Virus record (IMG/VR): IMGVR_UViG_3300033405_000009
DNA from: a virus
Length of the DNA: 64,000 bases
Reading direction: 5' to 3' (one strand)
The translations under genes and the position numbers were made by a program. Below the pieces are notes generated by a model. That model was not told the DNA's origin. It ran no database searches and saw only the letters and a list, made by a program, of their open reading frames with translations. Numbering within the stretch: position 1 is the stretch's first letter; each line of letters starts with the position of its first letter. Shown one piece after another: positions 23,013-48,982 of this stretch.

Positions 23013-23105
23013 AAAATTTTGATCACGCCCGAGTGTGAAAGCCGGTGACTTGTGTCAGCTTTTCTGGCTGTTGCCTTTACCATTTGGCTACTCCCCCGTA
23101 AAAGT

Positions 23106-23165: not shown

Positions 23166-23240
23166 TGAGTCCTCTCGGAATCGAACCGAGTTCTTCTGCT
23201 CTTCAGGCAGACGCTGAATCACCAGACTAGCTCAGGACTC
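23166..23240 (-). tRNA. tRNA-Phe(GAA)
   Basis: acceptor gagtcct/aggactc, perfect T-arm ctcgg-aatcgaa-ccgag, loop rc CTGAAGA. Confidence 0.6.
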
Positions 23241-23565: not shown

Positions 23566-23634
23566 GGAGGCCGAGGTTGGATTCGAACCAACGTTACTTA
23601 TGCTTGTGTGCTTTGCTCGAGTGGGCGTTATCGG
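23566..23634 (-). other. tRNA-like 3' element, paralog of 23106-23165
   Basis: acceptor-like ggccgag pairs upstream (ctcggcc 23555-23561) forming hairpin rather than acceptor. Confidence 0.3.
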
Positions 23635-23706
23635 TGACCCCAGCGAGAATCGAACTCGCATAAGCAGATTGAAAATCTGCGATCCTAACCTTTAGACGAT
23701 GGGGCC
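23635..23706 (-). tRNA. tRNA-Glu(UUC)
   Basis: perfect T-arm gcgag-aatcgaa-ctcgc, anticodon stem gcaga/tctgc loop rc TTTTCAA. Confidence 0.55.
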
Positions 23707-23794
23707 GTTTGCCTTTACACGCTGATGCGCCAACGTTAAAGGCTGCTTACGTTGAACGGCGGGCCGCGCATGGGAGGTCGCTCGTTCGGAGATT

Positions 23795-23926
23795 GGGGGA
23801 CTTCCGGAGTCGAACCGGATGCTTGTGGGGATTGCTGGATGGCCCCTTTCAGGGCCGAGGTGCAATACCTAACTGCCTTGCGGCCTAGAGTGTGAGTCTA
23901 GTTGGGCGCCGTGCCCAAAAGTCCCC
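23795..23926 (-). ncRNA. long tRNA-like RNA A (~132 nt): tRNA frame with ~60-nt insert between anticodon-like arm and T-arm
   Basis: acceptor ggggact/agtcccc, T-arm tccgg-agtcgaa-ccgga; insert has GCAA-tetraloop hairpin and second hairpin with compensatory changes across copies. Confidence 0.5.
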
Positions 23927-24027
23927 GTAACTTTTCCTTTACTCTTTCGAGTCAGCCACTTATGGGCAGCTGATCGAAATTTACGCTTGGCTTGACGCCT
24001 CGCGGCCATGTTTCGCATGGAATTCAT

Positions 24028-24170
24028 TGGAGAGGGATCTTGGAGTCGAACCAAGTATGCTTGTGGGTACTACTGAGTGGCTCCGTGAGGAGCCGAGTTG
24101 TAATACCGGAACGCCTTGCGGCGCCAGTTTTACTGACTGGTAGGCGGCCGTCGCCCATATCCCTCATGTG
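24028..24170 (-). ncRNA. long tRNA-like RNA B
   Basis: acceptor gagggat/atccctc, T-arm cttgg-agtcgaa-ccaag, conserved gcttgtggg...ccgag...gccttgcggc blocks. Confidence 0.5.
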
Positions 24171-24210
24171 TTTTGTGAAAGTTTAAGGCAGCCGAGTTGT
24201 AGTGCTGTTT

Positions 24211-24285
24211 TTGGTGCAAAAGGTCGGATTTGAACCGACCAGTGTTTCCGTTCCGGGGAAATGCTCCACCTAGGAGCATCTTTTG
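24211..24285 (-). tRNA. tRNA (anticodon loop CCGGAAC, identity uncertain)
   Basis: CCA encoded, acceptor gcaaaag/cttttgc, perfect T-arm gtcgg-atttgaa-ccgac. Confidence 0.45.
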
Positions 24286-24317
24286 CGTGTTAGCACTACG
24301 GGTTGGCTGCCTTGGCG

Positions 24318-24462
24318 GGGATCCCTGGATTCGAACCAGGATTGCTTGTGGGAACCGCTTGGTGGTCCCTTTCAGGACCGAGTTGCGATGCCGGACTGTC
24401 TTGCGACACAGTTTAACCAACTGTTGAGCTGCCATTGCTCAAGATCCCCAAAATTGTGGCAC
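24318..24462 (-). ncRNA. long tRNA-like RNA C
   Basis: T-arm ccctggattcgaaccagg; acceptor ggggatc/gatcccc; same conserved insert. Confidence 0.45.
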
Positions 24463-24490
24463 CCGAGTTGTGATGCTGATTTTTGCAAGA

Positions 24491-24562
24491 GCGAGTTTCG
24501 AATTCGCCCCTTCGGTTTAGCAGACCGACGTTCCACCTAGGAACATCTTGCGTGTAAGCATC
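24491..24562 (-). tRNA. tRNA (anticodon GCU-like, type I length)
   Basis: T-arm gcgag-tttcgaa-ttcgc, anticodon stem tcggt/accga. Confidence 0.4.
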
Positions 24563-24580
24563 ACTGATTGGGTGCCTCAG

Positions 24581-24651
24581 AGCCGCCGAGTGGAGTCGAA
24601 CCACCCTCACCGCATTACGAAAGCGGGGTTCTCCCAGAGAACTACGACGGC
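24581..24651 (-). tRNA. tRNA-Thr(CGU)
   Basis: T-arm agtgg-agtcgaa-ccacc, loop rc TTCGTAA. Confidence 0.45.
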
Positions 24652-24767
24652 GTGAAGTGCTCCATTACACTCACCATGGCACTCCCTATGAGTTAGGTGA
24701 CTATAACGGTTGGGTTGCACTTACCCGATTAAGGCGGCCTGATTCGAAGTCAGAACCTTAACCACGG

Positions 24768-24904
24768 TCGAGGAGCCAGGAGTCGAACCTGGATTTTTGC
24801 TTGTAGGAACTGCTGGTTGGCTCTTTTCAGAGCCGAGTGGCAATGCCGGCTGCGCCTTTCGGCTAGCTCCCTTTGCTAGTGGGGGACCGACCCCCTATCT
24901 CCTC
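24768..24904 (-). ncRNA. long tRNA-like RNA D
   Basis: acceptor cgaggag/ctcctcg, T-arm ccagg-agtcgaa-cctgg, conserved insert. Confidence 0.5.
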
Positions 24905-25055
24905 GTTCTATCGATCTCTACATTCGACGAGTTCCAGTTTACGGAACTCATCAGCGTCTCAGGTAGGTAACGATCCTACTTTCTCTCGCTTAACAGGCGA
25001 GTGCTATTCCATATTAGCTTCTGAGACAATGAACTTTTGTTAACAAGTTCTTGTT

Positions 25056-25496
25056 ATGAGAACTTGTAAGAAGTGTGGAAACTCTATTCCTCGGTACACC
25101 GAGGTGGACGGTAAACAAGTTTCGCTCACTAACAGGACCCTGTGTTTGGGGTGCAGTTCGCTTAAAAAGCCACGTTCTTTTCCAAACTTAAAACGTCAAA
25201 AGAATATGATACTCGTTACCGCTTATCGTCAGAAAACGAAACAGAAGGCTGTAGAAACTAAAGGAGGTAAGTGCGAAATCTGTGGATATGACCGTTGCAT
25301 TTCTGCACTTATCTTCCACCATCGCGACCCATCTACCAAGTCTTTCTCCATCAATGATGGTAGAACTCGAAGGTGGGAGATAGTTGAAAACGAGATCGTT
25401 AAATGCGCACTCCTTTGTCACAATTGCCATTCCGAAGTCCACGCGGGACTTATTCAGCTCCAGGGGAAGGACTCGAACCTCCAGCCTCTTGGTTAA
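25056..25496 (+). CDS. HNH homing endonuclease
   Basis: CEICGYDRC...FHHRDP...CHNCH. Confidence 0.65.
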   Translation: MRTCKKCGNSIPRYTEVDGKQVSLTNRTLCLGCSSLKKPRSFPNLKRQKNMILVTAYRQKTKQKAVETKGGKCEICGYDRCISALIFHHRDPSTKSFSINDGRTRRWEIVENEIVKCALLCHNCHSEVHAGLIQLQGKDSNLQPLG

Positions 25497-25531
25497 CAGC
25501 CAAGCCATGGTACCCATACCAAAACCCTGGA
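25458..25531 (-). tRNA. tRNA-Asn(GUU)
   Basis: acceptor tccaggg/ccctgga, anticodon stem cttgg/ccaag loop rc CTGTTAA; overlaps 3' end of HNH ORF. Confidence 0.55.
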
Positions 25532-25677
25532 ACGAAAGTGGAACTCCGTGATCCGTACCACGGAGTTCCCTCGCGCGAAGGCTTTTCGGTGACTTCCAGC
25601 CACACTACTGCGCCCTCTCTATCGCTCTGCGTAGATTGTCAGAGAACTGGACCCTTCACGTTTGAGGGGCCGTTCGG

Positions 25678-25744
25678 CTGAGACGGAAGGATTCGAACCT
25701 TCTTCGACGGAATCAGAAACCGTCTTATCACCTTGAGCATCTCA
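25678..25744 (-). tRNA. short tRNA, anticodon ambiguous
   Basis: perfect T-arm gaagg-attcgaa-ccttc, acceptor 6/7. Confidence 0.35.
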
Positions 25745-25757
25745 ATGTTTGTCTTCG

Positions 25758-25829
25758 TGAGCCCTGAAGGAATCGAACCTTCTACACGCGGCTTAAGAGA
25801 CCGCTGTTCTACCAGTGAACTAAGGGCCC
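25758..25829 (-). tRNA. tRNA-Lys(CUU)
   Basis: T-arm gaagg-aatcgaa-ccttc, loop rc CTCTTAA. Confidence 0.55.
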
Positions 25830-25860
25830 GCTTTTGTTTTGAGGCTGGGGTTTGCCTCAG

Positions 25861-25932
25861 TGAGCCCTGAAGGAATCGAACCTTCTGCGCGCGGCTTAAA
25901 AGACCACCGTTCTACCAGTGAACTAAGGGCCC
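25861..25932 (-). tRNA. tRNA-Lys(UUU)
   Basis: paralog of 25758-25829, loop rc CTTTTAA. Confidence 0.55.
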
Positions 25933-25992
25933 CCTTTCTTTGTTTTTGGCCCCTGTTTGAGGGGCTTGGTCTTGCGTTTCATCTGTGACTCC

Positions 25993-26080
25993 AGTGTGGG
26001 CGATAGGATTCGAACCTACTCAGGCTTATTGGCGTTGCGGGCGGGTTACAGCCGCTTGAGCTCTCCAGGGCTCAGCACCC
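25993..26080 (-). tRNA. tRNA-Tyr(GUA), type II
   Basis: T-loop attcgaa, D-arm gagc-cctggaga-gctc, loop rc CTGTAAC. Confidence 0.5.
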
Positions 26081-26137
26081 ACGCGATTTTGTTGCGCGCG
26101 TGCGCCGCCGTATACTGTTCTCGTCGCGTTGCCATCT

Positions 26138-36486: not shown

Positions 36487-37725
36487 CTAGCCCTTCACAC
36501 ACATGATCTGCTTGAGCGTGTAAACGATATCGACCAGATCGCTTTGAGCTGCCATTACATCTTCGATCGGCTTGTAAGCACTCGGGCTCTCGTCGATTAC
36601 GTCCTTATCCTTGCGACAAGCCACACCCTCCGTCGCCGCTCGGTGCTCCTCGAGTGTGATACTCCGCTTGGCCTCCCCACGAGCCATCGTACGTCCTGCT
36701 CCGTGTGAACATGAATTGAAGCTCTCCGGGTTACCCTTCCCGCGCACGATATAACTCTTGGTGCCCATCGAACCCGGAATAATGCCCATGTCCCCGAGTT
36801 GAGCACGCACAGCACCCTTACGAGTCACCCATACATCTTCTCCGAGGTGATGCTCTCGAGCCACATAGTTGTGGTGACAATTCACCACTTCTCCGGTAAG
36901 AGTGAAGCGCGGGAGTCCAGCCTTGCGGACCGCCTCGATCACGGCTCGCATCATGAGATCACGATTTGTGCGAGCATAGTCCTGGCACCAGCTGACCGCC
37001 TTCACGTAGTCGTCGAAATGCTCGGTACCTTCATCCAGATACGCGAGGTCTCGGTTTGGAAGACGACGGTCGAGACGCTCCATGTCCTTCTTAGCGAGCT
37101 CGATGAAATAGGTTCCGATCTTGTTCCCAATCCCGCGGGATCCGGAATGGAGCATGAACCAAACGTTTTGGTCCTGATCGAGACATACTTCGACGAAGTG
37201 ATTACCTCCTCCGAGCGTCCCAAGTTGTCCTTCCGGATTTCCCTCCTTCGCACGACCATGACGTCCCACGACTTCCTTGAAGCCCGGGACAAGCCTCCCC
37301 CACGCCTCTGTGACGTACTTCGGGGTCTTCTCCCAGGACCCGACCGCGCCTTTATCTTTGGCGCTACCATGCGGAACGGCCGCTGAAATGTGGTCAAAGA
37401 GAAGCTTGTCAGCATTGACCGGAAGATCTGAGGCGTTGAGACTGGTACGCACGGCGGCCATACCACATCCGATGTCTACCCCGACAGCCGCCGGGATGAT
37501 GGCCTTCAGGGTCGGAATGACACTTCCGACTGTCGCCCCGATACCGAAATGGACATCAGGCATGACAGCAATATGCCCATGCACGATGGGAAGCGTGGCG
37601 GCCTGGATAAGCTGAAGCTTGGCTCCAGCTTCGAACTTCACTCCATTCGTCCATGCCTTGATGGGAACACGTCCGCCCTCGACCAACTCGTAGCTCATGC
37701 CGCATGTTACATGCGAACTGCACAA
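36487..37725 (-). CDS. rtcB: RtcB RNA 3'-phosphate/5'-OH ligase
   Basis: GGGNHFVE, CHHNYV, SCSHGAGR signature motifs. Confidence 0.85.
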   Translation of the reverse strand: MCSSHVTCGMSYELVEGGRVPIKAWTNGVKFEAGAKLQLIQAATLPIVHGHIAVMPDVHFGIGATVGSVIPTLKAIIPAAVGVDIGCGMAAVRTSLNASDLPVNADKLLFDHISAAVPHGSAKDKGAVGSWEKTPKYVTEAWGRLVPGFKEVVGRHGRAKEGNPEGQLGTLGGGNHFVEVCLDQDQNVWFMLHSGSRGIGNKIGTYFIELAKKDMERLDRRLPNRDLAYLDEGTEHFDDYVKAVSWCQDYARTNRDLMMRAVIEAVRKAGLPRFTLTGEVVNCHHNYVAREHHLGEDVWVTRKGAVRAQLGDMGIIPGSMGTKSYIVRGKGNPESFNSCSHGAGRTMARGEAKRSITLEEHRAATEGVACRKDKDVIDESPSAYKPIEDVMAAQSDLVDIVYTLKQIMCVKG

Positions 37726-37753
37726 ATTTACGCTTTTTATTGTAAGATAATGT

Positions 37754-37957
37754 ATGGAAATGTGGGATGAATCGGTGTTGGAATTTATGAACCTTTCAAG
37801 ACGTCAGCGAAAGACTGTAATTATGCATCTCTTCGACAAATGGCATGAACTGAAGCGCACCAATCCGCAAGTCGCAGAAGATTTCTTAATTGGACTTCGA
37901 GTCGTGGATAGCTTGCATCATGCGTCAGACTGCGTGCGAGAGGTCATGGAATCCTAA
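37754..37957 (+). CDS. hypothetical protein (C-term REVMES)
   Basis: ORF 67 aa. Confidence 0.45.
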   Translation: MEMWDESVLEFMNLSRRQRKTVIMHLFDKWHELKRTNPQVAEDFLIGLRVVDSLHHASDCVREVMES

Positions 37958-37970
37958 GCTTCCATGACCT
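37941..37970. terminator. 30-nt perfect palindrome formed by two convergent gene-end motifs
   Basis: AGGTCATGGAA-TCCTAAGC-TTCCATGACCT; both stop codons in loop. Confidence 0.4.
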
Positions 37971-38154
37971 CTGCGACTCTCATCAGCAAGCATTCTTCCA
38001 GAGTGATCTCTTCGTAATACTTCATGTGATCCACTTTTAGAATGTTTTGATAATAGACATCGCAGCATGCGATGGTTCGACCTGGCTCAGATTTAATGCG
38101 TAGAAAGCGTGTCGCCGTTATGGGCAGCCCACAACAACCATCACAGATAATCAT
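37954..38154 (-). CDS. hypothetical protein (C-term AEVMEA)
   Basis: ORF 66 aa. Confidence 0.45.
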   Translation of the reverse strand: MIICDGCCGLPITATRFLRIKSEPGRTIACCDVYYQNILKVDHMKYYEEITLEECLLMRVAEVMEA

Positions 38155-38363
38155 CGTGGGCGAGGGAACAAGCAGACTTCCTTTTTATCCACATGCACTG
38201 CGTAAGTATAAAGTTTGCCGAGAGTCTTCTCGAGATTGGTGTGAAGATCTGCTAGTGCAGTCTTCTGATCCGGACCTTTTCCGGAAACCTGAATCGATCG
38301 ATTGAGCGCTGAAATGATCGTTTCAGTTCTCGACGGCGTGATTTCAAGTCTCATATCATCCAT
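38151..38363 (-). CDS. hypothetical protein
   Basis: ORF 70 aa. Confidence 0.45.
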   Translation of the reverse strand: MDDMRLEITPSRTETIISALNRSIQVSGKGPDQKTALADLHTNLEKTLGKLYTYAVHVDKKEVCLFPRPR

Positions 38364-38365
38364 GA

Positions 38366-38635
38366 TTAGCTCTCCAAGATTCCGCGAACCATTTCATAAT
38401 TACAATCGCTGGAAATTCCTTGCTTGAGAGCATTCTTGTTAATGGATGATTTATGAGATTCCTCACGGATTCTAACAGGTCCCGCCCCACAACGCTTGCA
38501 AACGTATGATCGGAACCCATGAAGATGCATCTGAATATGAGATTCTTTGGTGGCGCCTCCCGCTAAATGAATTCCCATGCTCGACGGGACGAGCTCCCAC
38601 CGATGAATGGCTTTCTTCATCGGCTTGCCGTTCAT
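38366..38635 (-). CDS. zinc-ribbon protein (C-term RGILES)
   Basis: likely start MNGKPMKK overlapping upstream stop (TGATGA); CKRCGAG. Confidence 0.45.
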   Translation of the reverse strand: MNGKPMKKAIHRWELVPSSMGIHLAGGATKESHIQMHLHGFRSYVCKRCGAGPVRIREESHKSSINKNALKQGISSDCNYEMVRGILES

Positions 38636-38850
38636 CACGACTCCATCACGTGTCGGACGATGCATTCAGGATGTGCGCATTTATCAAGAGCCATACGATG
38701 TTCGCAATGATGATTTTTGAAGATCGTAGCAAGCACTTTGAAGGTAACGGCGGCGTCACATTTCGCGTATTTCGCAAGATTGTCGAATTGGTCTTGAAAT
38801 TGCTTCAGAACCAGTTCCATCTGCAGAACATGCGAAATACGCGAACTCAT
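38635..38850 (-). CDS. hypothetical protein (C-term RHVMES)
   Basis: ORF 71 aa. Confidence 0.45.
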   Translation of the reverse strand: MSSRISHVLQMELVLKQFQDQFDNLAKYAKCDAAVTFKVLATIFKNHHCEHRMALDKCAHPECIVRHVMES

Positions 38851-39545
38851 CAGCGTCTTGCTCGGCGTTCTGCCTTCAACCTTGCTCGGCTCTTAACGAC
38901 CTTCGGGAAGAGAGAAGTCATATAGGGATGGGCATTCGTTTGAGTTTCGAATGGACCCATCCATGCGACTCTCGACTTGAGGTCCAAATTTTCAGGAGTC
39001 TCCTCGAGATTCAGTCCAAGTGAAGAACGCTCCACGAATCCGATCTTTACATTCGGTTTCAAGAGAGGCTGCACCGTCTTGAAAGTAGTTGAGACAGCCC
39101 CGGGCTCGCTCGAGAAATAAACACCTTTGTATAGAATCTGGTAGTCCATACCTTGAGCAATAGGCTCGCCATTTTTGAGCTCCCACGCCAGTTTGTATCG
39201 CTCTACAGACTTCTCGACCTTTGGAATCAGGGCGATGGCATAGTCTTTTTCCCGACTCAGAATGTGAAAGTTGAACCAGCTGGTAGGAGACCCTTCAGAC
39301 CAGTCAACAATATGATTGAAAATCTGTTCTGCTTCATCCAGAACGAAAATCGGCCACGGGTCGCCTTCGGGCGACACACCCCAAAGTATGGCCTCGGCTC
39401 TTCCGTCTGGAAGCGCATTGATCATGTTCGAAAAAGCTCTCATCGAACTCGGTTCGAGATCGAGCGTTTGTCCTGCATTACCCGTCAAGAGCGGGATATA
39501 ACTCACCACATAATGAACGAGTTTTTTAGATTTGGTGATAGGCAT
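38850..39545 (-). CDS. hypothetical protein
   Basis: ORF 231 aa. Confidence 0.5.
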   Translation of the reverse strand: MPITKSKKLVHYVVSYIPLLTGNAGQTLDLEPSSMRAFSNMINALPDGRAEAILWGVSPEGDPWPIFVLDEAEQIFNHIVDWSEGSPTSWFNFHILSREKDYAIALIPKVEKSVERYKLAWELKNGEPIAQGMDYQILYKGVYFSSEPGAVSTTFKTVQPLLKPNVKIGFVERSSLGLNLEETPENLDLKSRVAWMGPFETQTNAHPYMTSLFPKVVKSRARLKAERRARR

Positions 39546-39819
39546 AATTAAGTTGCTCCCTCGCTTTTGCGTTTGGCTTGTCTTTCAGGTAGATGACAGG
39601 CTTGAGAGCGCCAGTTCGAATACTGACCTGTTCGATGAGGCCGTCGAGCACAGTATCAGTGAAAATCTCCTCATCCTTCGGATCCACCATGAGGAGAAGC
39701 TCCAAATCGAAGAATACTTTGCGACGAGCAAAATTGGCTTCGTCAGGTTTCTTGACCATCGCCTCGATGAGTTTCATGAACCATTGCTTTTCTTCAGCTT
39801 CCCACTTGATCATGAGCAT
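39526..39819 (-). CDS. hypothetical protein
   Basis: ORF 97 aa. Confidence 0.45.
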   Translation of the reverse strand: MLMIKWEAEEKQWFMKLIEAMVKKPDEANFARRKVFFDLELLLMVDPKDEEIFTDTVLDGLIEQVSIRTGALKPVIYLKDKPNAKAREQLNYAYHQI

Positions 39820-39837
39820 CTCTCGGTATGATCTGAT

Positions 39838-40134
39838 ATGGACTGCGTGTTTATTAATGGAAAGTGCTGGACTTGTGGTGGATCAGGCCTTAAAGTCGTA
39901 CATCGGCAAGGGGACCCAGTTGATCCGCATGAATTAGACCCTGAGGAATCTCCGCCACCAACTTATCCTCCCGAGTATTACCCGAATGGGTACCCGATTC
40001 TGCAGCAAGTTTACAAGAGTCAAGCGGTTTGGGCTGGAACCATGTATGCAACTTGTGATTGTCGCATCATCCGGAGCCCGCCATGGAATGGGCAGCTAAA
40101 TTTGAATCCGAATTACGGATTAAGCTTCGGTTAG
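39838..40134 (+). CDS. hypothetical protein
   Basis: ORF 98 aa. Confidence 0.4.
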   Translation: MDCVFINGKCWTCGGSGLKVVHRQGDPVDPHELDPEESPPPTYPPEYYPNGYPILQQVYKSQAVWAGTMYATCDCRIIRSPPWNGQLNLNPNYGLSFG

Positions 40135-40971
40135 CACTTCGAAAAATCGCTGTCTATCTCTCAACGCAATAGCGATTTTTACATCACTGTCGCGGTTCAA
40201 GCGAGCCCCCCACTCGCCCTTATGTCGGTACATATCGACGCGCTGAAATTCGCAAATCTCAGGCTCAATAGCTACGGCCATCGCTAAAGGATCGTGAAGT
40301 TTTTTCCCATCAGGATTCTTCTCTAGATAGAGTTCCATCCCTTTGAGCACGAGATCTAACCCAGCAGTTCGTTTAGGCAGCGCTTTAACTCTCGCATGGA
40401 ACTCGGGATCCCATGCGACTCCATGACATACATTTTTACCTACGAGTAGCTTCTCTCCAATATGCGAACTGGCCAGCATTCCTTCCGCTACTTTTGGAGC
40501 GCCGTTGAAATTGAAAGTTGGACAGGTTTCTCGTCCGGCAAATTTCTCTAGACGATATTCCGGGGGCACCACAGAATCACCAGCAAATCCGCCTTGTGCC
40601 ACCCATCGCGGGAAGCGCGGCAAAGAAATGAAATTCTTAAGAGGAGCTCCTGTTAAGAGTGTTGCTCCCAAATCTACCGCATAATTCAAGACATCGAGCG
40701 CATATCTGTCCGGCATCAATGAGAACGAGCCGAGCCATTTATCATGAAATGCGCTCACCGCAGGCTTTGTTCGGCTCGGATCTCCTCCAATGGGAACATC
40801 TTTGCGATCCAAATGATCCAGCACGTGTCTTGCGAGCCCGACTTGATCGGGCCCACCAGGAGTAATCGTTACGGAGACAAGTTCGACCCTCGGATGCGTT
40901 GCCAGGATGGCGAGCGTCATCACATCATCCGGATCTTGCGTCTCCATGTCAAAATGGATGCGATGTTTCAT
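40120..40971 (-). CDS. nucleoside hydrolase-like protein
   Basis: N-terminal HFDMETQDPDDVMTLAIL resembles IU-nucleoside hydrolase DxDxGxDD motif. Confidence 0.45.
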   Translation of the reverse strand: MKHRIHFDMETQDPDDVMTLAILATHPRVELVSVTITPGGPDQVGLARHVLDHLDRKDVPIGGDPSRTKPAVSAFHDKWLGSFSLMPDRYALDVLNYAVDLGATLLTGAPLKNFISLPRFPRWVAQGGFAGDSVVPPEYRLEKFAGRETCPTFNFNGAPKVAEGMLASSHIGEKLLVGKNVCHGVAWDPEFHARVKALPKRTAGLDLVLKGMELYLEKNPDGKKLHDPLAMAVAIEPEICEFQRVDMYRHKGEWGARLNRDSDVKIAIALRDRQRFFEVLTEA

Positions 40972-41153
40972 GATTCCAGCACTGTACGAATTGTCTGTTC
41001 ATTACAGTCGATCGCGTACTTACCGGATGGTTTCTTGAAAAGACCGGAAGTCTTGAAGCCGCAACGTCGGCATTCGAAAAACATTCGATCCTGGTGAGCG
41101 ATCGGATCTGGCTGTGTGTCAACCAGTTTCCATCTATGCGGTCTCCACTTCAT
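40968..41153 (-). CDS. zinc-ribbon small protein (C-term RTVLES)
   Basis: ORF 61 aa. Confidence 0.4.
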   Translation of the reverse strand: MKWRPHRWKLVDTQPDPIAHQDRMFFECRRCGFKTSGLFKKPSGKYAIDCNEQTIRTVLES

Positions 41154-41530
41154 GACTCCATGATATTACGTACGATGTTAATGCGTTTCCCACGTGGAAC
41201 CATCTGAATAGGCCCTCGTTTATATCTATCAAGAGTTTCTTTTGTTTCCTGGTGATTCTTTCGAGCAGTTTCCAACTCACGTTCCGCGTTTGAAACTTCG
41301 ATTTGCGAATATCGAAAGTCTCTTTGAATTTCCTCGATGCGTTTATGAGTATCGCATTCGGGGTCGTCGCACATGAGGTCACAGTCACCACAATAAGAGC
41401 ACCATTTGAGGCACCCGTGGCATCTGCCCTCTCCGGGACATTCGGGCTCTTCGTAAGCCTCACTCACGGCCTTTTTCCTTGTCGAATTTATTGATGGCCT
41501 TATGAATGGCAGAAGCCACGATTTTTGCAC
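41150..41530 (-). CDS. Cys-rich protein (C-term RNIMES)
   Basis: CPGEGRCHGCLKWCSYCGDCDLMCDDPECD. Confidence 0.45.
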   Translation of the reverse strand: MQKSWLLPFIRPSINSTRKKAVSEAYEEPECPGEGRCHGCLKWCSYCGDCDLMCDDPECDTHKRIEEIQRDFRYSQIEVSNAERELETARKNHQETKETLDRYKRGPIQMVPRGKRINIVRNIMES

Positions 41531-41678
41531 CGGAGAGTTTGGCTTGCCGATGCAAAATTCCTTGTACGTCTTTTGGTTTGGCTTCGGAGAAATCTGTCAG
41601 ATCTTTTTGTAAATCAATCTGACAGGCCAACAGCACATCATCTAAAAGACGCCGAAGTTCTGATTCTTCCGGACTCAT
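41460..41678 (-). CDS. hypothetical protein
   Basis: ORF 72 aa. Confidence 0.4.
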   Translation of the reverse strand: MSPEESELRRLLDDVLLACQIDLQKDLTDFSEAKPKDVQGILHRQAKLSGAKIVASAIHKAINKFDKEKGRE

Positions 41679-42172
41679 GACTCCATGACCTGACGAACTT
41701 TTTCCTCGTCACAATCCTCCGGCATCTTATCTAGAACTTTGATCAAATCACTCGCCGGACTGTTCTTGAATGATAGTTTAAGACGAGTGCCACAATCCGG
41801 GCACAAAATGACAAATTTATCTTGGTGTTTCGTCACTAACTCATATGCAAGTGAATGCTTTGCTTTACCAAATCTATCACATGCAAATGCGAGCAGTTCT
41901 CGCTTAAATTCCAAGTCTTGTTTGCGAAATTCTAAATTCACTGATGCAAGACACACAGATCCACAGTATTCATTGCAACATGCGGTGCAATTCCCGCCTT
42001 GACAGCGCGGGTCTTCATAACCTTCACAATCTCGAGTAGAACATCGGGGGGCAGAGTCTGGTTCTGGTTCTGGAAGTTCTGGCGATCCGAATAGAAGCCT
42101 CCAAATCCAAACAAGGATTCCGGGCCAGCGCCAAGGAGGTGATTGATTTGTTGTGGTAAGTTCGTCACTCAT
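41675..42172 (-). CDS. Cys-rich protein (C-term RQVMES)
   Basis: multiple CxxC pairs. Confidence 0.45.
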   Translation of the reverse strand: MSDELTTTNQSPPWRWPGILVWIWRLLFGSPELPEPEPDSAPRCSTRDCEGYEDPRCQGGNCTACCNEYCGSVCLASVNLEFRKQDLEFKRELLAFACDRFGKAKHSLAYELVTKHQDKFVILCPDCGTRLKLSFKNSPASDLIKVLDKMPEDCDEEKVRQVMES

Positions 42173-42426
42173 TAGTTCGAATTACTCTTTAGAAGAGATA
42201 CATCGAACTTTACGAGAGGTAGATTCCGAATCCAGGATCGAACGTCTTCTGGAGCCCCTAGAATCTTCGCTAGTTCAGCCGTTGCCATGGGTGTATGGAC
42301 TTCACCCTTCTCATTCCAGACAAAATTTCCGTATGGGACAGGTCCGATATCCACTCGGACGTCTTCTCCAGGATGGCTTACGGACAAATCTGCTGCAATT
42401 TTTGCTCGGATCTGATCGGGTGTCAT
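42172..42426 (-). CDS. hypothetical protein
   Basis: ORF 84 aa. Confidence 0.4.
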   Translation of the reverse strand: MTPDQIRAKIAADLSVSHPGEDVRVDIGPVPYGNFVWNEKGEVHTPMATAELAKILGAPEDVRSWIRNLPLVKFDVSLLKSNSN

Positions 42427-42467
42427 ATTGATTATCTACTCTGATCGGATGAGAACTTCGTTACAAG

Positions 42468-42737
42468 TTAAGAATTCATGATCTCCTGAACAGTGTGGCT
42501 ATTGATGGCTTCCAAAATCACATCTGGATCTGGGGAACTAAGAGGAAGCCATTTGCCTTCTCCAGGCCACTCGCTCATCACAACAAGAACGAGCTTCGAA
42601 CCACCATCTTCTCCCGTAATAATTTCAAATGAGTATTTTTTCTCGCGAAAAACGAACGGTTTCCGCTGACCCGTATGAAAACGCAGCCAGGCACGCCGCA
42701 GGACTCGTTCGTCAGATGATAAGATGGGACGACTCAT
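42468..42737 (-). CDS. hypothetical protein (C-term QEIMNS)
   Basis: ORF 89 aa. Confidence 0.45.
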   Translation of the reverse strand: MSRPILSSDERVLRRAWLRFHTGQRKPFVFREKKYSFEIITGEDGGSKLVLVVMSEWPGEGKWLPLSSPDPDVILEAINSHTVQEIMNS

Positions 42738-42810
42738 TCGCGTGTTGTACGCGCAACGGTTCGAAATCTAGCATACACGCAAATTTGGCCATGGCTCGAG
42801 TAATGAACAA

Positions 42811-43464
42811 GTGAGCTCTTACGAATCGCGCGTCTCGCGCACACAAAGCCGGTTTCTCGCCGCTCTGTCACATTACGGAATTGAAGCCAGTATCACGGTG
42901 GGAGCCAGAGGCAAATGCACATTAATTGTGGATGATTTCAAATACCCGTGCGCCTTTTACGACGGAACGGTCTACCTTGTCTCCGGAATATCTTCACCTG
43001 TCTCTTCAGAGAAGAGACATTATATCTCCATGCCTAAGCGTTGGAAAGGCGATAGGTGGAGAGATTTCCACTATATTCAAAGCGCGATCCTGCACGGAAA
43101 TAAATCCGCTGCAGATTACAAAGCGTGGCTACAGCGGACTCAATGGAGTAGAGATTTACAAGAGCTAGTGAGTCGATTCTCGAACATGACACTCAAGGTA
43201 TCATGTGGTCAGGATCTCGTTTCCAATAAGCTTCTGATCAAAGTTGAAGGTTCCACTACAGGGACTAAGCTCGAACGGTGGCGATTCGAGCATATTGTCA
43301 AGATGTGGAGTGAATGGGTTGGAACAGGACGACAAGTAGTAATGACTGCAGATGACATGAATTGCACTTGCAATCTCCAAGGATGGTTCACTGAGCCCCA
43401 GGCTCGAGAATTCATCCTATATCTCATCGAAACTCAAATTGCGGCCGATGTTATTACCTCATGA
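42811..43464 (+). CDS. hypothetical protein
   Basis: ORF 217 aa. Confidence 0.5.
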   Translation: MSSYESRVSRTQSRFLAALSHYGIEASITVGARGKCTLIVDDFKYPCAFYDGTVYLVSGISSPVSSEKRHYISMPKRWKGDRWRDFHYIQSAILHGNKSAADYKAWLQRTQWSRDLQELVSRFSNMTLKVSCGQDLVSNKLLIKVEGSTTGTKLERWRFEHIVKMWSEWVGTGRQVVMTADDMNCTCNLQGWFTEPQAREFILYLIETQIAADVITS

Positions 43465-43482
43465 TCCTATAGTCTTTGAATT

Positions 43483-43806
43483 TCATTTGATGCGATATGG
43501 GAACATTCCATCCCATTTAACCTTGTTCGTCAGCCTACAAATTGCCAATCTGACGTCACCAGGTTGGACCAAGTGCCAACCTTGAATTGATCGTCCATTC
43601 GATGATTCGATCATCGGACGAGCTTGAAGCTTATCTTCAATCGCATACAGGACACCAGAAATAGCCATTCGTTTGGAGGAATCTGTCGGTAGGACCTCTA
43701 AAATGAGAGCTCGCAAACGAGCTTCTGTAATTCGGATGGTCGACGTCGGAGCGATCCCAATTCGACGTTGAAGTCCTCTCTTTTTTGTGATTGATTCGGT
43801 GGTCAT
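43483..43806 (-). CDS. hypothetical protein
   Basis: ORF 107 aa. Confidence 0.45.
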   Translation of the reverse strand: MTTESITKKRGLQRRIGIAPTSTIRITEARLRALILEVLPTDSSKRMAISGVLYAIEDKLQARPMIESSNGRSIQGWHLVQPGDVRLAICRLTNKVKWDGMFPYRIK

Positions 43807-44054
43807 ATGTTCATAACCTCAAACACAAGACCTTCTTCAACTGTTACTTCTTCTACTAGAAAACGGACTTCAATGAAATCTAGTTTATGGTTTGGACATC
43901 GATACTTCACGTTGCCCCATTTCATGATGAATGCATTTCGAGTCGGGCTCCCGCAGGTTTTACCCGACGCGTATTGAAATCGGCAATTGAAATAACTACC
44001 AGCAGGGTCCATTGGTGATTGAGTCATGATCCCATGATCTCCCCAACCAAACAT
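43803..44054 (-). CDS. hypothetical protein (C-term FEVMNI)
   Basis: ORF 83 aa. Confidence 0.45.
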   Translation of the reverse strand: MFGWGDHGIMTQSPMDPAGSYFNCRFQYASGKTCGSPTRNAFIMKWGNVKYRCPNHKLDFIEVRFLVEEVTVEEGLVFEVMNI

Positions 44055-44308
44055 TCTTCAATCGTCGGGGAGAGAGCTTCTCCGTTAATTGTGTCGTCAG
44101 TATAGATATACTGTTGTCCACACCCTGAGCAATGATCCAAACGAGAAAGGCCACCATTAGTTCTAACGACCAAAAGAATTCCTGGTGGATTATAAGCGCA
44201 ATGAGGGCATTCAGATCTATACGGACTGTCGTCAGAATATCGGATCAATTCTGAATGCTTGACCTGAATCCATTGTCGTCTCAAATTCTTACCAACTTCT
44301 TCGCTCAT
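44024..44308 (-). CDS. zinc-ribbon protein (C-term GEIMGS)
   Basis: CPHC...CSGC. Confidence 0.45.
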   Translation of the reverse strand: MSEEVGKNLRRQWIQVKHSELIRYSDDSPYRSECPHCAYNPPGILLVVRTNGGLSRLDHCSGCGQQYIYTDDTINGEALSPTIEECLVGEIMGS

Positions 44309-44979
44309 GAGTTCATGTCTAGTTCTATGAAATTCATCTGCTCTGCACTCTTACAAGCTTCTTCGTAAGACTCACCGATTCCTTCCGAAGGTCGAATTTG
44401 GATTCCGAGCTCACGCATATCGCGTCGGTGATCCACTTTCCCCGGCTGGTCATCCACACGGCAGACTCCATAACGCTGAGTGCCTGCGGGTCTGCTCTTA
44501 GCATCTCCGCGATCCACTACGACCCAAAGACCACCGAAATCTGTCAAATCGACATCATCGGCAAAATATGACCCGTTCAAGTCGTAACCACCCGCTCCGG
44601 AACCTTGCTTTTCGGAAGGGTCGCTTCGGTATCCGAAAGTCGGTTCCTTTACTCCGAACTCAGAAAGATCTGGTTCAAACCCAATAGGCGGTGGCGCAGG
44701 AAGAAGCGCAATTCTTTCAGATTCAGTTTGAGTTGTTCTCAGTTCAAGATCTCCAAGGTCTACAGACAAACTCGGATCCAATTCTTCCGGCAGTTTAGTG
44801 GTTTTTACGGACGTCGATCGCTCCCTATGAGGAATTACTTTGGCCGGACCAAATAGATCCTTCAAAGTTGGGAGCCAGCCGGGTCGACCTTTGTTACTCA
44901 CGAGAAAATTTACGCCGAAAATTCGAGTATCTGCTGGATGAGTCGAATATATGCCATAAATTTCGTAAATATATGGCAT
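44305..44979 (-). CDS. hypothetical protein
   Basis: ORF 224 aa. Confidence 0.5.
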   Translation of the reverse strand: MPYIYEIYGIYSTHPADTRIFGVNFLVSNKGRPGWLPTLKDLFGPAKVIPHRERSTSVKTTKLPEELDPSLSVDLGDLELRTTQTESERIALLPAPPPIGFEPDLSEFGVKEPTFGYRSDPSEKQGSGAGGYDLNGSYFADDVDLTDFGGLWVVVDRGDAKSRPAGTQRYGVCRVDDQPGKVDHRRDMRELGIQIRPSEGIGESYEEACKSAEQMNFIELDMNS

Positions 44980-44982
44980 ATA

Positions 44983-45189
44983 TTAAGAAGATATAATATG
45001 GTATATTAGGGTCTCTTGACATGTCAAGTCTCGAACAAATGGATGGAGAGCTTCTTGTTCAGGAGGCCTGAGTGTGAATGAAGTTGTCTTTAATCCGCAA
45101 TTGCGACATTCCCAATAGCGACGCCTGGCATGACCACCAACTCTTTTGACAGTGTTGAGACGCCAGATATGTTCACTCGGCGACTTCAT
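44983..45189 (-). CDS. zinc-ribbon small protein
   Basis: ORF 68 aa, CRNCG. Confidence 0.4.
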   Translation of the reverse strand: MKSPSEHIWRLNTVKRVGGHARRRYWECRNCGLKTTSFTLRPPEQEALHPFVRDLTCQETLIYHIISS

Positions 45190-45464
45190 TCGTTCATGAT
45201 TCTCGCAATCATTAGCACATCACAATTGTGAAATCTCATATTCAAGCCTCCGGCCCAAGCCTGAACCGGAACGTATGTAGTTTTGTAGTCGTTGAAATCA
45301 GGAAATGCGTGTGCTTTCGGAAATTCGCAAATAGTTCCACAATTAACACATCTAATGCGCTGCCTTCGACCCGGATAAATGGCACTCTTAGTAGGTGGAC
45401 CGTCATCAGTCCACACGTGTCCACGGTCTGACACGATTCTCGAGCGTGCCGGACCCTTACTCAT
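45186..45464 (-). CDS. hypothetical protein (C-term ARIMNE)
   Basis: ORF 92 aa. Confidence 0.45.
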   Translation of the reverse strand: MSKGPARSRIVSDRGHVWTDDGPPTKSAIYPGRRQRIRCVNCGTICEFPKAHAFPDFNDYKTTYVPVQAWAGGLNMRFHNCDVLMIARIMNE

Positions 45465-46165
45465 GAGAGCATAACATTCGCCACTGATGCTTCTTGAAGC
45501 AAATCGTGAAGTACATCTTCAAGATTCTCGAAAGCGGACATTCGACGATAGAGATTCCTAATTTGGCGCAAATTTTCTGAAGCCACCCATTGACTGTCGT
45601 GCTTGATGGCGAATTCGATCCAGTCCTTAACATCTCGTTTGCGCTGAATCTCAGTCGGCTCATCGCCTCCAGTCATATTACTGTCTTCCCAGTCCCATTT
45701 GAGATACTGCTCCGCAAATTTGATTACGAAGCGACGAGCCTTGGTGTGGAAAGACTTTTTGATGTCCTTCGGAAGACGAGCCCTGTCAATGTCTGAAACG
45801 ACTTTGAATCGTGTTCCAGCAATGGTGTCGAAAGGTTCATATGAACATGGACCGAGATGATCAACATCTTCCTTCGTGCCGAATGCGTGAATCCGCTTTC
45901 GGACGGAATCTGTCGTCATGAAGCTAGCGAGCGGGTCGGTCATAATCCATTCAAGAAACCCCACTCGAATTGGTTCAAGACGAGCCATCAAAAAGGCCCT
46001 TCCAACATGACATGCAGTATTGGAAATGGGTTTAATTTCGGTCTCTCTCATCCAGGTATCGAGAACTCCGGTATTCAGCCAATATGTAAACAGAACTCGG
46101 AGAATGTTGTGTTCTGGAGAACGAGTGTTTGACGTCTCATATGGAAAAATCACAGGCTTCGTCAT
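45461..46165 (-). CDS. hypothetical protein (C-term ANVMLS)
   Basis: ORF 234 aa. Confidence 0.5.
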   Translation of the reverse strand: MTKPVIFPYETSNTRSPEHNILRVLFTYWLNTGVLDTWMRETEIKPISNTACHVGRAFLMARLEPIRVGFLEWIMTDPLASFMTTDSVRKRIHAFGTKEDVDHLGPCSYEPFDTIAGTRFKVVSDIDRARLPKDIKKSFHTKARRFVIKFAEQYLKWDWEDSNMTGGDEPTEIQRKRDVKDWIEFAIKHDSQWVASENLRQIRNLYRRMSAFENLEDVLHDLLQEASVANVMLS

Positions 46166-46692
46166 TGCTCCATGATCTCCCGAATATCTGCCAGTCTCAT
46201 GTGTTCAACGCCCTGCATCAGGTAACGAAACCATTCTGGCATGATGTCTTTAATCCAAGATTTGCCAGTCTCGTACGCTGGATAAACCTCGAGCATTCGG
46301 AAGTATTGTCCGATGATCTCGCCATTGTGCGGTCCTGGCGTTGCCAGCAATTGCATCACCGTAATGAACTCAGCTTGCGAGATCGCAGGATACCCGGGAA
46401 AGGGTTTCGGCAGCGGAGGGTGGATGCTATAACGCATTCCGCAGATGCCCCATCGGCTCTCCCCGATTACCCTGCGCATCTTATAATCCCAACGAGATCG
46501 TGACTGGCCGTTGAGTTTTTCTTGAATCTCATAAGGAAGTTCCTCTTCAATTCGAAACTTCAAGTCGTTGACCCGCTGCCCATGAGATTGGATTGTAGCC
46601 ACGAGACGAGCTTCAAGTCGTATTTTGTTCTTCCCGCCGATATTGCACATCGTGGATGGAATTTCTTCGTGGTACTCGACGACTTGATTCAT
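46162..46692 (-). CDS. hypothetical protein
   Basis: ORF 176 aa. Confidence 0.5.
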   Translation of the reverse strand: MNQVVEYHEEIPSTMCNIGGKNKIRLEARLVATIQSHGQRVNDLKFRIEEELPYEIQEKLNGQSRSRWDYKMRRVIGESRWGICGMRYSIHPPLPKPFPGYPAISQAEFITVMQLLATPGPHNGEIIGQYFRMLEVYPAYETGKSWIKDIMPEWFRYLMQGVEHMRLADIREIMEQ

Positions 46693-47390
46693 CAGGACGT
46701 CAGAGCCTCATGGACGACGGCTTCTGGAATCCATTGTTCGACGGTCTCGGTTGGGTCCTCCCGAAAGAATTTGATCTGCTTGTGTCCTGCAAAGAAAAAC
46801 AGGACCGTGTAAAGAGGCCTGGTGGGATCGCATTGTTCCCAACCTGACATGAAGGTACAGGGAGGCCCGTGGACTACTTTCCAGGTTCCTTCGACAAGCA
46901 AGTGTCCTTCTTGTCCAGCGGGAGCATCGGACACATCGCCAACACCGTCAATGTTGAATGACCCAATGAAGCCCGGAATCTTTGTCAACTGCTCCGTGTA
47001 ATTGCCTTTCTTCTTGGAAAGGGCATATCCCGACTGTAGCAGTCGACTGAGACTGGCGAGATGCTTGATCACGAGTCCATCACCTCGATACAGAACATGA
47101 CGTCGCAATCCGGAATTTGCTCCAGAACCAGTTCCTTTGACAAACGCTGCCCGCCTCTGCGGAGCCACTGCGCATTCATCGAATAGTCTTCCACTACACG
47201 GAGAGAGCAGACAATGCATTCCTGCGTCTCCAAGGACCCGTTTTGGATGATAGTTTTCCAACAGTGTTCCATCACGACTCCATGACTTCATAAAGGACAA
47301 TTTGTTTTTCCAGCGACTTGATGCGTTTCTCCCAAGGCACCAATGAAATCTGATGCTCTGCGGCTTCTCGTTTGAGTTGGTCCAACCCAT
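46692..47390 (-). CDS. hypothetical protein
   Basis: ORF 232 aa. Confidence 0.5.
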   Translation of the reverse strand: MGWTNSNEKPQSIRFHWCLGRNASSRWKNKLSFMKSWSRDGTLLENYHPKRVLGDAGMHCLLSPCSGRLFDECAVAPQRRAAFVKGTGSGANSGLRRHVLYRGDGLVIKHLASLSRLLQSGYALSKKKGNYTEQLTKIPGFIGSFNIDGVGDVSDAPAGQEGHLLVEGTWKVVHGPPCTFMSGWEQCDPTRPLYTVLFFFAGHKQIKFFREDPTETVEQWIPEAVVHEALTS

Positions 47391-47469
47391 TTTGGGATGG
47401 CTTCTTCTCCAACTTTCGAAGACGTGCCGTCACATCGATCCTGTACTTGGCACCTGGAATGATATTCAT
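47272..47469 (-). CDS. hypothetical protein (C-term YEVMES)
   Basis: ORF 65 aa; overlaps start of downstream ORF. Confidence 0.35.
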   Translation of the reverse strand: MNIIPGAKYRIDVTARLRKLEKKPSQNGLDQLKREAAEHQISLVPWEKRIKSLEKQIVLYEVMES

Positions 47470-47744
47470 GCGCTGAGAGCATCCTCCACGACAGCCATCA
47501 TATCGCGGGCCAGTTTCTCGCCCTCAACCAGGGTGGAGAACCCATCCGCGAGATCCAGCTCATAAGTCTCACGGTCTCCACCATGATCGATGGTGATACC
47601 TTCATCTTCGTACTGAGCGCAGACGCCTTGAAGCTTGTCCCATACTCCTGACCGAGAAAAGTCGTATGTTTTGGAAGAGACGACCTGACCCTCGGATTCA
47701 TCAGTGTGGAATGCGATTGTGATCTTCATTGGTGCGCTTCTCAT
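47466..47744 (-). CDS. hypothetical protein
   Basis: ORF 92 aa. Confidence 0.45.
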   Translation of the reverse strand: MRSAPMKITIAFHTDESEGQVVSSKTYDFSRSGVWDKLQGVCAQYEDEGITIDHGGDRETYELDLADGFSTLVEGEKLARDMMAVVEDALSA

Positions 47745-48982
47745 TCGTAGTCCCTCACCGCAATGAAACTAGCACCCTTCGGCTTCCCAGCGTCGGTCTT
47801 GTCCATGTAGCGATAAGTCACCACAGATCCAATCGGAGGAGGGTTGCGTCGATCTTCGTCTGTGAGCCCGCCGCCGAGGTTGAACTCGATGCCTTCCGGC
47901 GTCCGAACCTCCAGACCGCCCGTCCTGCCCTTGTGGCGGCCTTTCCCGGCCTCATAACCGATGACCGTGGCCTCCGCATCCTTCCACGGCTTGACCTTCA
48001 GAATGGTGGCGCTCCGGGCCGCGACGTACCGAGATTTCGGCTCGCGAATCATGACCCCCTCAGCCCCGAGAGCAACCAAGCGATCCAACTCCTGCTTGAG
48101 GTGATCGAGCCCGAGACATGGGTTTTGATCGACCATCTTGAAAAAGTCGCTGTGGCGATGCTTGAGGACACCCTCGAGCAATTCCATCCGCTTCTCGAAT
48201 CCTTCGAGGGTGAGGTGTGGCATGTCGAACGCGCGGTAGCATACCTTCTTCCAGCGGTCTCCGGAATCCACGCTCTTGACGACACTGATCGTCTGCTGGA
48301 AAGCATGACGCCCCATCCACAGCTCACCGTCGAGCGGGTGGTCGGGAAGACCGTTCCGGAACCAATCCGGGGCGTAGAAGATGTTGCCTTGGCGGGAGAT
48401 GAACTGCTTCCCGTCCCAATAGGCGCGCACCCCATCGAGCTTCTCGCTCATCCACCAGCCCTTGGGGCTAATATCGGCCTCCTCAAACGGATGTGCGAGG
48501 AGGATGGGCGGCCCGAAGAACTTCGCTTTCTCGTCCTGACGGAGCTTGCGTCCAAGCTCCTTCTCCGCCATCTCCTCGATCTGAGGCCGCATTTGCATGA
48601 GGAAATCCATGCCGGCGCGGCGACAGTGGTTGACGAACGATTCGACGCTTTTGCCCTCCCAACCCGGCTCACCAAGAGCGACGCTCGACACCGGATTCCC
48701 GTTGCCGGACGCGGCTCTCGGAGCGTTGCTAAGGTTGGGTGCAGAGGTCGGGAGGCGACCTGTGGTGATCCCTACGGCAGAGATACCGCCAATACGGGCC
48801 GTCTCAGCTGCATCACCGCAGACCTTTCGCAGGTGCTTGCAGGTGCGCTTGTCGATGGGAACCGACTGATTGCGCCATGCAGGGCAAGAGCAGCTCTTGA
48901 CTCCACCCGAGTTCTTGAGCTGGTAGGGCTTGGACCCTGAACCCTGCACCTCTGCCGTATCGCCGTCGTGATCGAGCGCCAT
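47741..48982 (-). CDS. ATP-dependent DNA ligase with N-terminal Cys-rich zinc-finger-like domain
   Basis: KLDGVRAYW (motif I KxDG), EGVMIREP (IV), ILKVKPWKD (VI); N-term CSCPAW..C.H. Confidence 0.75.
   Translation of the reverse strand: MALDHDGDTAEVQGSGSKPYQLKNSGGVKSCSCPAWRNQSVPIDKRTCKHLRKVCGDAAETARIGGISAVGITTGRLPTSAPNLSNAPRAASGNGNPVSSVALGEPGWEGKSVESFVNHCRRAGMDFLMQMRPQIEEMAEKELGRKLRQDEKAKFFGPPILLAHPFEEADISPKGWWMSEKLDGVRAYWDGKQFISRQGNIFYAPDWFRNGLPDHPLDGELWMGRHAFQQTISVVKSVDSGDRWKKVCYRAFDMPHLTLEGFEKRMELLEGVLKHRHSDFFKMVDQNPCLGLDHLKQELDRLVALGAEGVMIREPKSRYVAARSATILKVKPWKDAEATVIGYEAGKGRHKGRTGGLEVRTPEGIEFNLGGGLTDEDRRNPPPIGSVVTYRYMDKTDAGKPKGASFIAVRDYE

Follow-up and report, generated by a model that had tools for sequence, protein, structure and literature searches.

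What does an RNA ligase do in a virus that carries its own large set of transfer RNA (tRNA) genes? The question is raised by the rtcB gene found in a 64,000-nucleotide stretch of IMG/VR virus record IMGVR_UViG_3300033405_000009, referred to here as the window, which also codes for about 50 tRNAs. A first-pass annotation had placed rtcB in one block of RNA repair genes together with an ATP-dependent DNA ligase, two HAD phosphatases and the tRNAs. The reading favored here, to which we assign a probability of roughly 60%, is narrower: RtcB would be an active enzyme that mainly reseals tRNAs cut during infection, encoded by an accessory gene, and the other enzyme genes of that list would be separate matters.

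The open reading frame (ORF) announced as rtcB is present on the minus strand at 36487-37725 and its product matches Pfam family PF01139 over the complete profile (positions 1-426 of 426; E 1.6e-123; 413.6 bits for a cut-off of 27). The start of the gene is corrected to the ATG at 37698, the probable initiation codon, since the resulting 403-amino acid form is the one called on public metagenome contigs; an identical protein is found on contigs of both ENA and JGI metagenomes. Residues D75, C78, N166, H167, H184, R188, H276, H332 and R336 are invariant in an alignment of nine phage and bacterial RtcBs that share 46-66% identity, H332 lying inside an SCSHGAGR motif. The metal-site residues align also with the equivalent motifs in the structures of T. 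thermophilus and human RtcB. We take D75, C78, N166, H167, H184 and H276 to correspond to the E. coli metal ligands Asp75, Cys78, Asn167/His168, His185 and His281, H332 to the guanylylation nucleophile His337 of the SHGAGR motif, and R188 and R336 to arginines of the E. coli enzyme, whose residue numbering and roles reportedly come from work by Tanaka, Chakravarty and Shuman. The first-pass annotation had named loss of the active-site residues as the ground for giving up its proposal; they are conserved in the structure and in the nine-sequence alignments. The full length of the protein and the invariance of all its metal-binding and nucleophile residues make it credible that this tRNA-rich phage has an active ligase joining 3'-phosphate or 2',3'-cyclic phosphate ends of RNA to 5'-hydroxyl ends. 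Being of the E. coli-like type, the enzyme should need no archease.

The chemistry of RtcB is well established. In the presence of GTP and Mn2+, His332 would be guanylylated. The enzyme would open the 2',3'-cyclic phosphate end of the cut RNA to give a 3'-phosphate and transfer GMP to it, yielding RNA(3')pp(5')G. Attack by the 5'-hydroxyl of the other RNA fragment would then restore the phosphodiester bond. The sequence shows the gene identities, the intact catalytic motifs and the gene arrangement; the substrates and the link to defence are inferred. The first substrates would be tRNAs, those of the host as well as the ~50 of the phage itself, and other RNAs of translation might be served too. 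The cuts would be made by metal-independent ribonucleases of the host defence or of competitors, the candidates being anticodon nucleases, HEPN or MazF-type toxins and colicin-like ribotoxins. Resealing by RtcB would in this way complement the phage tRNA supply. Comparative genomics of jumbo phages led to a similar proposal, in which tRNAs, RtcB and a stand-alone SAK-HAD counter tRNA cleavage (PMC7824862). The window would thus be one more uncultured example of the published pattern that sets large phages with tRNA arrays and RtcB against tRNA-targeting defence. No experimental demonstration of tRNA resealing by RtcB was found for any phage in the literature searched; the RtcB described here, intact and of E. 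coli type, is a clean candidate for a first biochemical or genetic test.

RtcB is encoded in 701 of the 50,697 reference phage records, among which large phages dominate (221 records from Mycobacterium phages, 63 from Bacillus, 58 from Listeria and 30 from phiCbK-like Caulobacter phages). Presumably the dominating groups are rich in tRNAs. The nearest phage RtcBs are those of the phiCbK-like phages (~60% identity). The best apparent 'phage' match, 'Acinetobacter phage MD-2021a', was rejected: its contigs (CAKLQH020000004.1, CAKLQF020000002.1 and related ones) are mislabelled ordinary Acinetobacter chromosome, carrying purF, pyrD, rpoH, aroA, an rtcR-rtcB-rtcA operon, RNase P RNA and EF-Tu, and they contaminate searches of phage databases. 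Host or donor inference from RtcB was also set aside. The nearest bacterial proteins are 60-66% identical to it in Myxococcota, Nitrospirota, Acidobacteriota, Planctomycetota and Burkholderiales alike, a flat distribution that gives no clue.

Several points weigh against a role in tRNA resealing. The nearest bacterial RtcBs are spread over many phyla and point to no host in which a cognate anticodon nuclease could be named. The rtcB gene is 10.4 kb away from the nearest tRNA gene, with genes of the opposite strand in between, and the 10 kb around rtcB are free of tRNAs in the majority of the other viral loci. Neither RtcA nor archease was detected in the window or the 10 kb beyond its start, and the same holds for Rsr/Y RNA, polynucleotide kinase and ATP-dependent RNA ligase. 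The stand-alone HAD phosphatase of the window, described below, has a chemistry that is antagonistic to that of RtcB rather than cooperative.

The search for partners covered further candidates. Neither a polynucleotide kinase-phosphatase nor Rnl1/Rnl2 is found in the window or the 10 kb beyond its start, and neither an RtcR regulator nor a Ro (TROVE) protein is found with Pfam among the ~75 ORFs annotated with Pfam, PHROGs and NCBIfam. The sole YrlA match scores 26.8 bits for a gathering score of 69 and overlaps tRNA-Lys genes. RtcB adjoins arrays of 9-10 tRNA genes in two of 22 other viral loci (L013 and L017) and is near at least one tRNA in eight of them. The physical linkage of rtcB to tRNAs is loose, given the 10.4-kb gap, the intervening genes of opposite strand and the few tRNAs found close to other viral RtcBs.

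The position of rtcB outside the tRNA array, together with the scarcity of tRNAs around other viral rtcB genes, fits also with repair of other RNAs. RtcB might mend 16S/23S rRNA or mRNAs cut by ribotoxins of the MazF or colicin E3 type, or serve general stress repair, its presence in a tRNA-rich phage being then incidental. The phage protein is of the common bacterial type that rtcR-rtcB-rtcA stress operons encode (the Acinetobacter locus L001 is an example), and bacterial RtcB acts on fragments of rRNA. Such activities do not exclude tRNA repair, however, and the phage records with RtcB are dominated by large groups that we take to be tRNA-rich. The published comparative analysis moreover ties RtcB to tRNA-targeting defence (PMC7824862). 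We hold repair of non-tRNA RNAs to be an unlikely, though not negligible, explanation.

The other enzymes of the proposed toolkit were assigned to the interval 36487-48982; the tRNAs and both HAD genes lie outside these coordinates. The ATP-dependent DNA ligase with a Cys-rich amino terminal finger is present as announced. It has Pfam matches to DNA_ligase_A_M and DNA_ligase_OB_2, its residues 158-410 match solved Lig E-type DNA ligases (4d05, E 8e-61) and all nucleotidyltransferase motifs are found (K181-x-DG, DGELW, EGVMIR and LKVK). The preceding 157-amino acid extension carries a SWIM-like signature, C31-x-C33-x14-C48-x-H50, which scores below the cut-off of the Pfam SWIM family (PF04434; 13.6 bits for 19.6, E 0.052). 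C31, C33, C48 and H50 are invariant in a full-length homologue from a relative (locus L051, 5284-6579; 42-46% identity) that has no RtcB nearby, and the fusion of ligase and finger is partly kept in the uncultured phage LR745208.1 (485 kb). The protein is judged to be a conserved DNA replication or repair enzyme, predicted to seal nicks outside of RNA repair. Its inclusion in RNA repair is dropped: by its core this is a Lig E-type DNA ligase, conserved in a relative locus without RtcB.

The two HAD phosphatases differ in their standing. The gene at 33324-33941 codes on the plus strand for a protein of the NT5C family, an assignment that places it in deoxynucleotide metabolism and outside RNA repair. 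The gene at 6069-6482, located at the distal end of the tRNA array and 30 kb from rtcB, codes for a HAD_SAK_2 protein (E 4e-12; 47.1 bits for a cut-off of 27.5) with the DxD motif D7-L-D9 in FLDLDG and a DD pair in VVLDDI. HAD_SAK_2 proteins are described as stand-alone RNA-repair or RNA-end phosphatases of jumbo phages (PMC7824862), so that this member of the pair keeps its place among RNA repair candidates. It is probably an RNA 3'-end phosphatase of a repair route other than that of RtcB. Its reaction yields 3'-hydroxyl ends, which are substrates for ATP-dependent RNA ligases and not for RtcB.

Ten kb and ~25 orphan genes without Pfam or PHROG match separate the ligase from rtcB, and these unmatched genes deprive the 'block' of the status of a demonstrable functional unit. 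The listed genes might then be accessory and core genes without relation to one another, neighbors by chance within 64 kb of a gene-dense phage genome. The separation of rtcB from the ligase, the relative that keeps the ligase without RtcB, the opposite orientation of the NT5C gene and the distance of a HAD_SAK_2 whose product is no RtcB substrate all favor this explanation. It leaves aside, however, that RtcB, HAD_SAK_2, the tRNAs, an RNase P RNA and EF-Tu form a theme of tRNA and translation RNA on one strand within 32 kb, a concentration that seems unlikely to be random, and we regard the explanation as quite improbable. In sum, the earlier proposal stands for the identity of RtcB, its intact residues and the agreement with published work on jumbo phages (PMC7824862), while the ligase and NT5C had been wrongly included.

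Comparison with a related huge phage indicates what kind of gene rtcB is. In that phage only 3.4 kb, devoid of RtcB, lie between the ligase gene and a homologue of the 237-amino acid phrog_6452 gene (Table 1); in the window these two genes are separated by 12.3 kb that hold rtcB and ~25 family-less genes. This difference argues that the ligase belongs to the core and rtcB to accessory genes, and from the gene content we conclude that rtcB probably sits in an expanded, lineage-variable accessory stretch. More than 300 homologues of the phrog_6452 protein are known, many of them encoded on contigs of 100-445 kb. The protein has H10, R20, D56, Q74, N83, P89 and T91 among its invariant residues and looks like the product of a conserved huge-phage core gene. 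It was rejected as a partner of RtcB: in the relative it lies near the ligase without RtcB.

Archaea and animals use RtcB as their tRNA splicing ligase, and three tRNA-like genes of the array carry inserts and are strongly structured (fold z-scores -3.6 to -4.1). RtcB might accordingly do the sealing in a pathway by which the phage splices or matures tRNAs, in which inserts are excised and the 2',3'-cyclic phosphate ends are joined to the 5'-hydroxyl ends. One of the three (17342-17455; fold z-score -3.55) has its insert in the D-loop. The other two, homologous to each other, are ~135 nt long with normal acceptor stem, D, anticodon and T arms, and have variable-region inserts of ~55 nt with two GNRA-capped hairpins; default tools missed them as tRNAs. 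The inserts are closed hairpins located in the D-loop or variable region, and the tRNA body can form without their excision. The predicted folds of the three RNAs contain no bulge-helix-bulge (3-nt bulge, 4-bp helix, 3-nt bulge). In the array a permissive Rfam scan turned up neither group I introns nor self-cleaving ribozymes, whether hammerhead, twister, HDV or another, and no splicing endonuclease family was detected among the ~75 ORFs. ARAGORN calls in intron mode are mainly fusions of neighboring tRNAs, only two of them pointing to real insert-bearing elements. A splicing role is highly improbable, and the suggestion that RtcB matures insert-bearing tRNA-like RNAs of the phage finds no support in these self-contained hairpins.

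The tRNA array itself is substantial. ARAGORN with default settings identifies 43 tRNAs between 5895 and 25932, every one of them on the minus strand; six more reach the gathering score of 29 bits in Rfam, and some four further sub-threshold Rfam matches coincide with relaxed ARAGORN calls. The ~53 tRNAs counted earlier are thus a fair lenient figure, the strict one being 43-49. The set covers every amino acid except Trp. A 'tmRNA' called by ARAGORN at 18057-18690 was discarded as an artefact, since it coincides in part with three tRNAs and the Rfam tmRNA model does not support it. Four homing-type HNH or endonuclease VII genes lie in the array or flank it, which suggests that the array is a hotspot for mobile endonucleases.

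The most unexpected feature of the window is an RNase P RNA within this array. It matches Rfam model RF00010 over its entire length (positions 1-367 of 367; 287.6 bits; E 5.8e-93), has both P4 strands intact, is co-oriented with the tRNAs and lies with its end 9 nt upstream of tRNA-Ala(cgc). A search of IMG/VR with a 19-base P4 motif returned 19 loci. Contigs of 100, 190, 363 and 463 kb have full-length RNase P RNAs within tRNA arrays that are dense and co-oriented; the tRNA array of a 155-kb contig contains a truncated copy, and two more copies, on contigs of 39.5 and 38 kb, have only one tRNA detected nearby. In the alignment of seven viral copies 47 of the 73 predicted base pairs show compensatory changes. 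Matches in the reference phage collection are confined to two of the mislabelled Acinetobacter 'phage' contigs, one genome record of Salmonella and four faecal contigs that are unannotated and named 'Bacteriophage sp.'. A full-text literature search gave no description of a phage-encoded RNase P RNA; its coverage was incomplete, and the result amounts to no more than absence of evidence.

The array also encloses a three-domain EF-Tu homologue that shares at most about 53% identity with any EF-Tu of the phage collection, where the matches are mostly bacterial or unannotated records. Bacterial EF-Tus usually differ from one another far less than that. These finds, like the major vault protein homologue described below, are bigger surprises than RtcB, and the neighborhood they form is weightier than the RtcB finding. 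They lead to a wider proposal, which we consider possible but short of probable, in which the phage would supply its tRNAs largely by itself and RtcB would be the repair arm of this supply line. The ~50 tRNAs would be transcribed together with the phage RNase P ribozyme and freed by it from their precursor, the divergent EF-Tu would bring them to the ribosome, and RtcB would reseal them once cut. A ribozyme and an EF-Tu of their own beside the tRNAs suggest that the part of the tRNA life cycle taken over by some huge phages goes well beyond supply alone.

Table 1. Positions of the features discussed; coordinates refer to the window unless another viral locus is named.
Feature	Coordinates	Strand	Basis or remark
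rtcB, 403 aa, short E. coli type; predicted ligase of RNA 3'-phosphate/2',3'-cyclic-phosphate and 5'-OH ends	36487..37698	-	Pfam, PDB matches, alignment
68-aa ORF, no known family	36274..36480	-	6 nt downstream of rtcB
89-aa DUF4326 protein, encoded third in the rtcB run	36001..36270	-	Pfam PF14216, E 1.6e-26
170-aa orphan ORF, overlaps the end of the DUF4326 gene	35496..36008	-	no family
237-aa protein, phrog_6452, downstream of the rtcB run	34748-35461	-	PHROG
NT5C-family 5'(3')-deoxyribonucleotidase (HAD superfamily)	33324..33941	+	Pfam; ORF on plus strand only
Lig E-type ATP-dependent DNA ligase with N-terminal SWIM-like zinc finger, 413 aa	47741..48982	-	Pfam, PDB matches
Stand-alone 'Swiss-army-knife' HAD phosphatase HAD_SAK_2	6069..6482	-	Pfam PF18143
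tRNA array, 43 (strict) or ~53 (lenient) genes, with HNH/EndoVII genes interspersed	5895..26082	-	ARAGORN, Rfam
Homing-type HNH/endonuclease VII genes (four), in or flanking the array	7897-8415, 13299-13727, 16156-16596, 26138-26560	-	family matches
Cys-based dual-specificity phosphatase, HCx5R, inside the array	14452-15048	-	AlphaFold model, pLDDT 96.5
tRNA-like, 48-nt perfect hairpin in D-loop, 6-nt anticodon loop	17342..17455	-	Rfam tRNA, 36.3 bits
Full-length bacterial type A RNase P RNA	18679..19015	-	Rfam RF00010
EF-Tu homologue, three-domain, inside the array	19927..21204	-	Pfam GTP_EFTU, D2, D3
tRNA-like, anticodon loop CAC, ~55-nt variable-region insert	23795..23926	-	homologous to 24313-24449
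tRNA-like, homologous variable-region insert	24313..24449	-	homologous to 23795-23926
RNase P RNAs in other viral loci	L034 4030-4350, L042 8153-8517, L049 536-887, L040 4462-4786, L036 875-1112		

Downstream of rtcB the genes follow in the order 68-amino acid ORF, DUF4326 gene and 170-amino acid ORF. The tight spacing of rtcB and the 68-amino acid ORF suggests that the two are co-transcribed. The latter has no family match in scans of Pfam, PHROG and NCBIfam, and the DUF4326 gene starts 3 nt after it. The 170-amino acid ORF has no match in the same three collections either and retrieves only itself among 5.8 billion proteins. DUF4326 is a predicted phosphoesterase that would act on the phosphates which ADP-ribose derivatives carry on their ribose (PMC9503650; prediction only). 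Of 28 other viral RtcB loci, two (L007 and L027) encode it at a distance of less than 5 kb from RtcB, a weak hint of an association between the two proteins.

Nearly all ORFs around rtcB, and from there to the ligase gene, are without family in the Pfam, PHROGs and NCBIfam scans. One ORF of the window, at 40120-40971 on the minus strand, codes for an inosine-uridine nucleoside hydrolase-like protein of which only the carboxyl terminal half matches the profile. The Cys-based phosphatase encoded inside the tRNA array was considered as an RNA-end phosphatase and rejected: its model matches generic dual-specificity protein phosphatases and not RNA phosphatases, and its homologues in relatives are encoded outside tRNA arrays. 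Huge-phage contigs encode homologues of this phosphatase, and in some of its bacterial homologues a receiver domain is fused to it.

All tRNA genes of the window and most of its long ORFs are on the minus strand. A megablast search of the block against the reference phage records gave no match at the nucleotide level. Metagenome contigs of 35-98 kb from ENA and JGI carry genes identical to ones of the window, and several window genes have homologues on viral or metagenome contigs of 160-485 kb. The latter, together with the HNH/endonuclease VII genes, a tail-fibre-like gene coding for a collagen / K1-lyase C-terminal protein and a Dam-type methyltransferase gene located directly outside the window start, mark the window by its gene content as part of a large uncultured phage.

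Two further products deserve mention. A small RyR-domain protein is encoded at 654-965 on the minus strand. Between the tRNA array and rtcB, the plus-strand gene at 30674-33232 codes for an 852-amino acid homologue of the major vault protein (MVP), with matches to MVP_shoulder (E 9.6e-30) and Vault_3. Its residues 491-786 align with positions 476-788 of rat and human MVP, and its length is roughly that of the eukaryotic protein. Major vault proteins of phages were reported already in one 2023 preprint (10.1101/2023.11.10.566534).

Set against known systems, the ligase of the window shares the two-domain core of adenylation and OB domains with the minimal Lig E enzymes (PDB 4d05, 8u6x and 6gdr). 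Bacterial Lig E proteins are minimal and have a signal peptide; the phage enzyme differs from them by its extra 157-amino acid amino terminal region with the SWIM-like CxC...CxH finger, and reading of its amino terminal sequence reveals no signal-peptide-like stretch.

The logic proposed here for RtcB is like that of phage T4, whose Pnk and Rnl1 repair tRNA-Lys cleaved by PrrC: in both cases a phage enzyme would undo the damage of an anticodon nuclease. The chemistry differs. T4 heals the ends with kinase and phosphatase activities before sealing them with ATP, whereas RtcB seals 3'-phosphate and 5'-hydroxyl ends directly with GTP. No Pnk or Rnl is found in the window, and the stand-alone HAD_SAK_2 alone resembles the T4 healing arm.

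The bacterial rtcR-rtcB-rtcA operon of E. coli and of the Acinetobacter locus L001 has the same short type of RtcB, with 60-66% identity and catalytic residues identical to those of the phage protein. The window differs from it by the absence of the RtcA cyclase and of RtcR, orphan ORFs and the DUF4326 gene following rtcB instead. The closest parallel among phages is provided by the phiCbK-like jumbo phages, which are large and carry tRNA genes of their own. Their RtcB (NC_019405 gp240, annotated as 'tRNA splicing ligase') is ~60% identical to that of the window over 97% of the protein, and its gene lies, as in the window, among hypothetical genes outside any tRNA cluster. There is no similarity at the DNA level and the neighboring genes differ. 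The window has about twice as many tRNAs as a phiCbK-like phage and adds to them an RNase P RNA and an EF-Tu.

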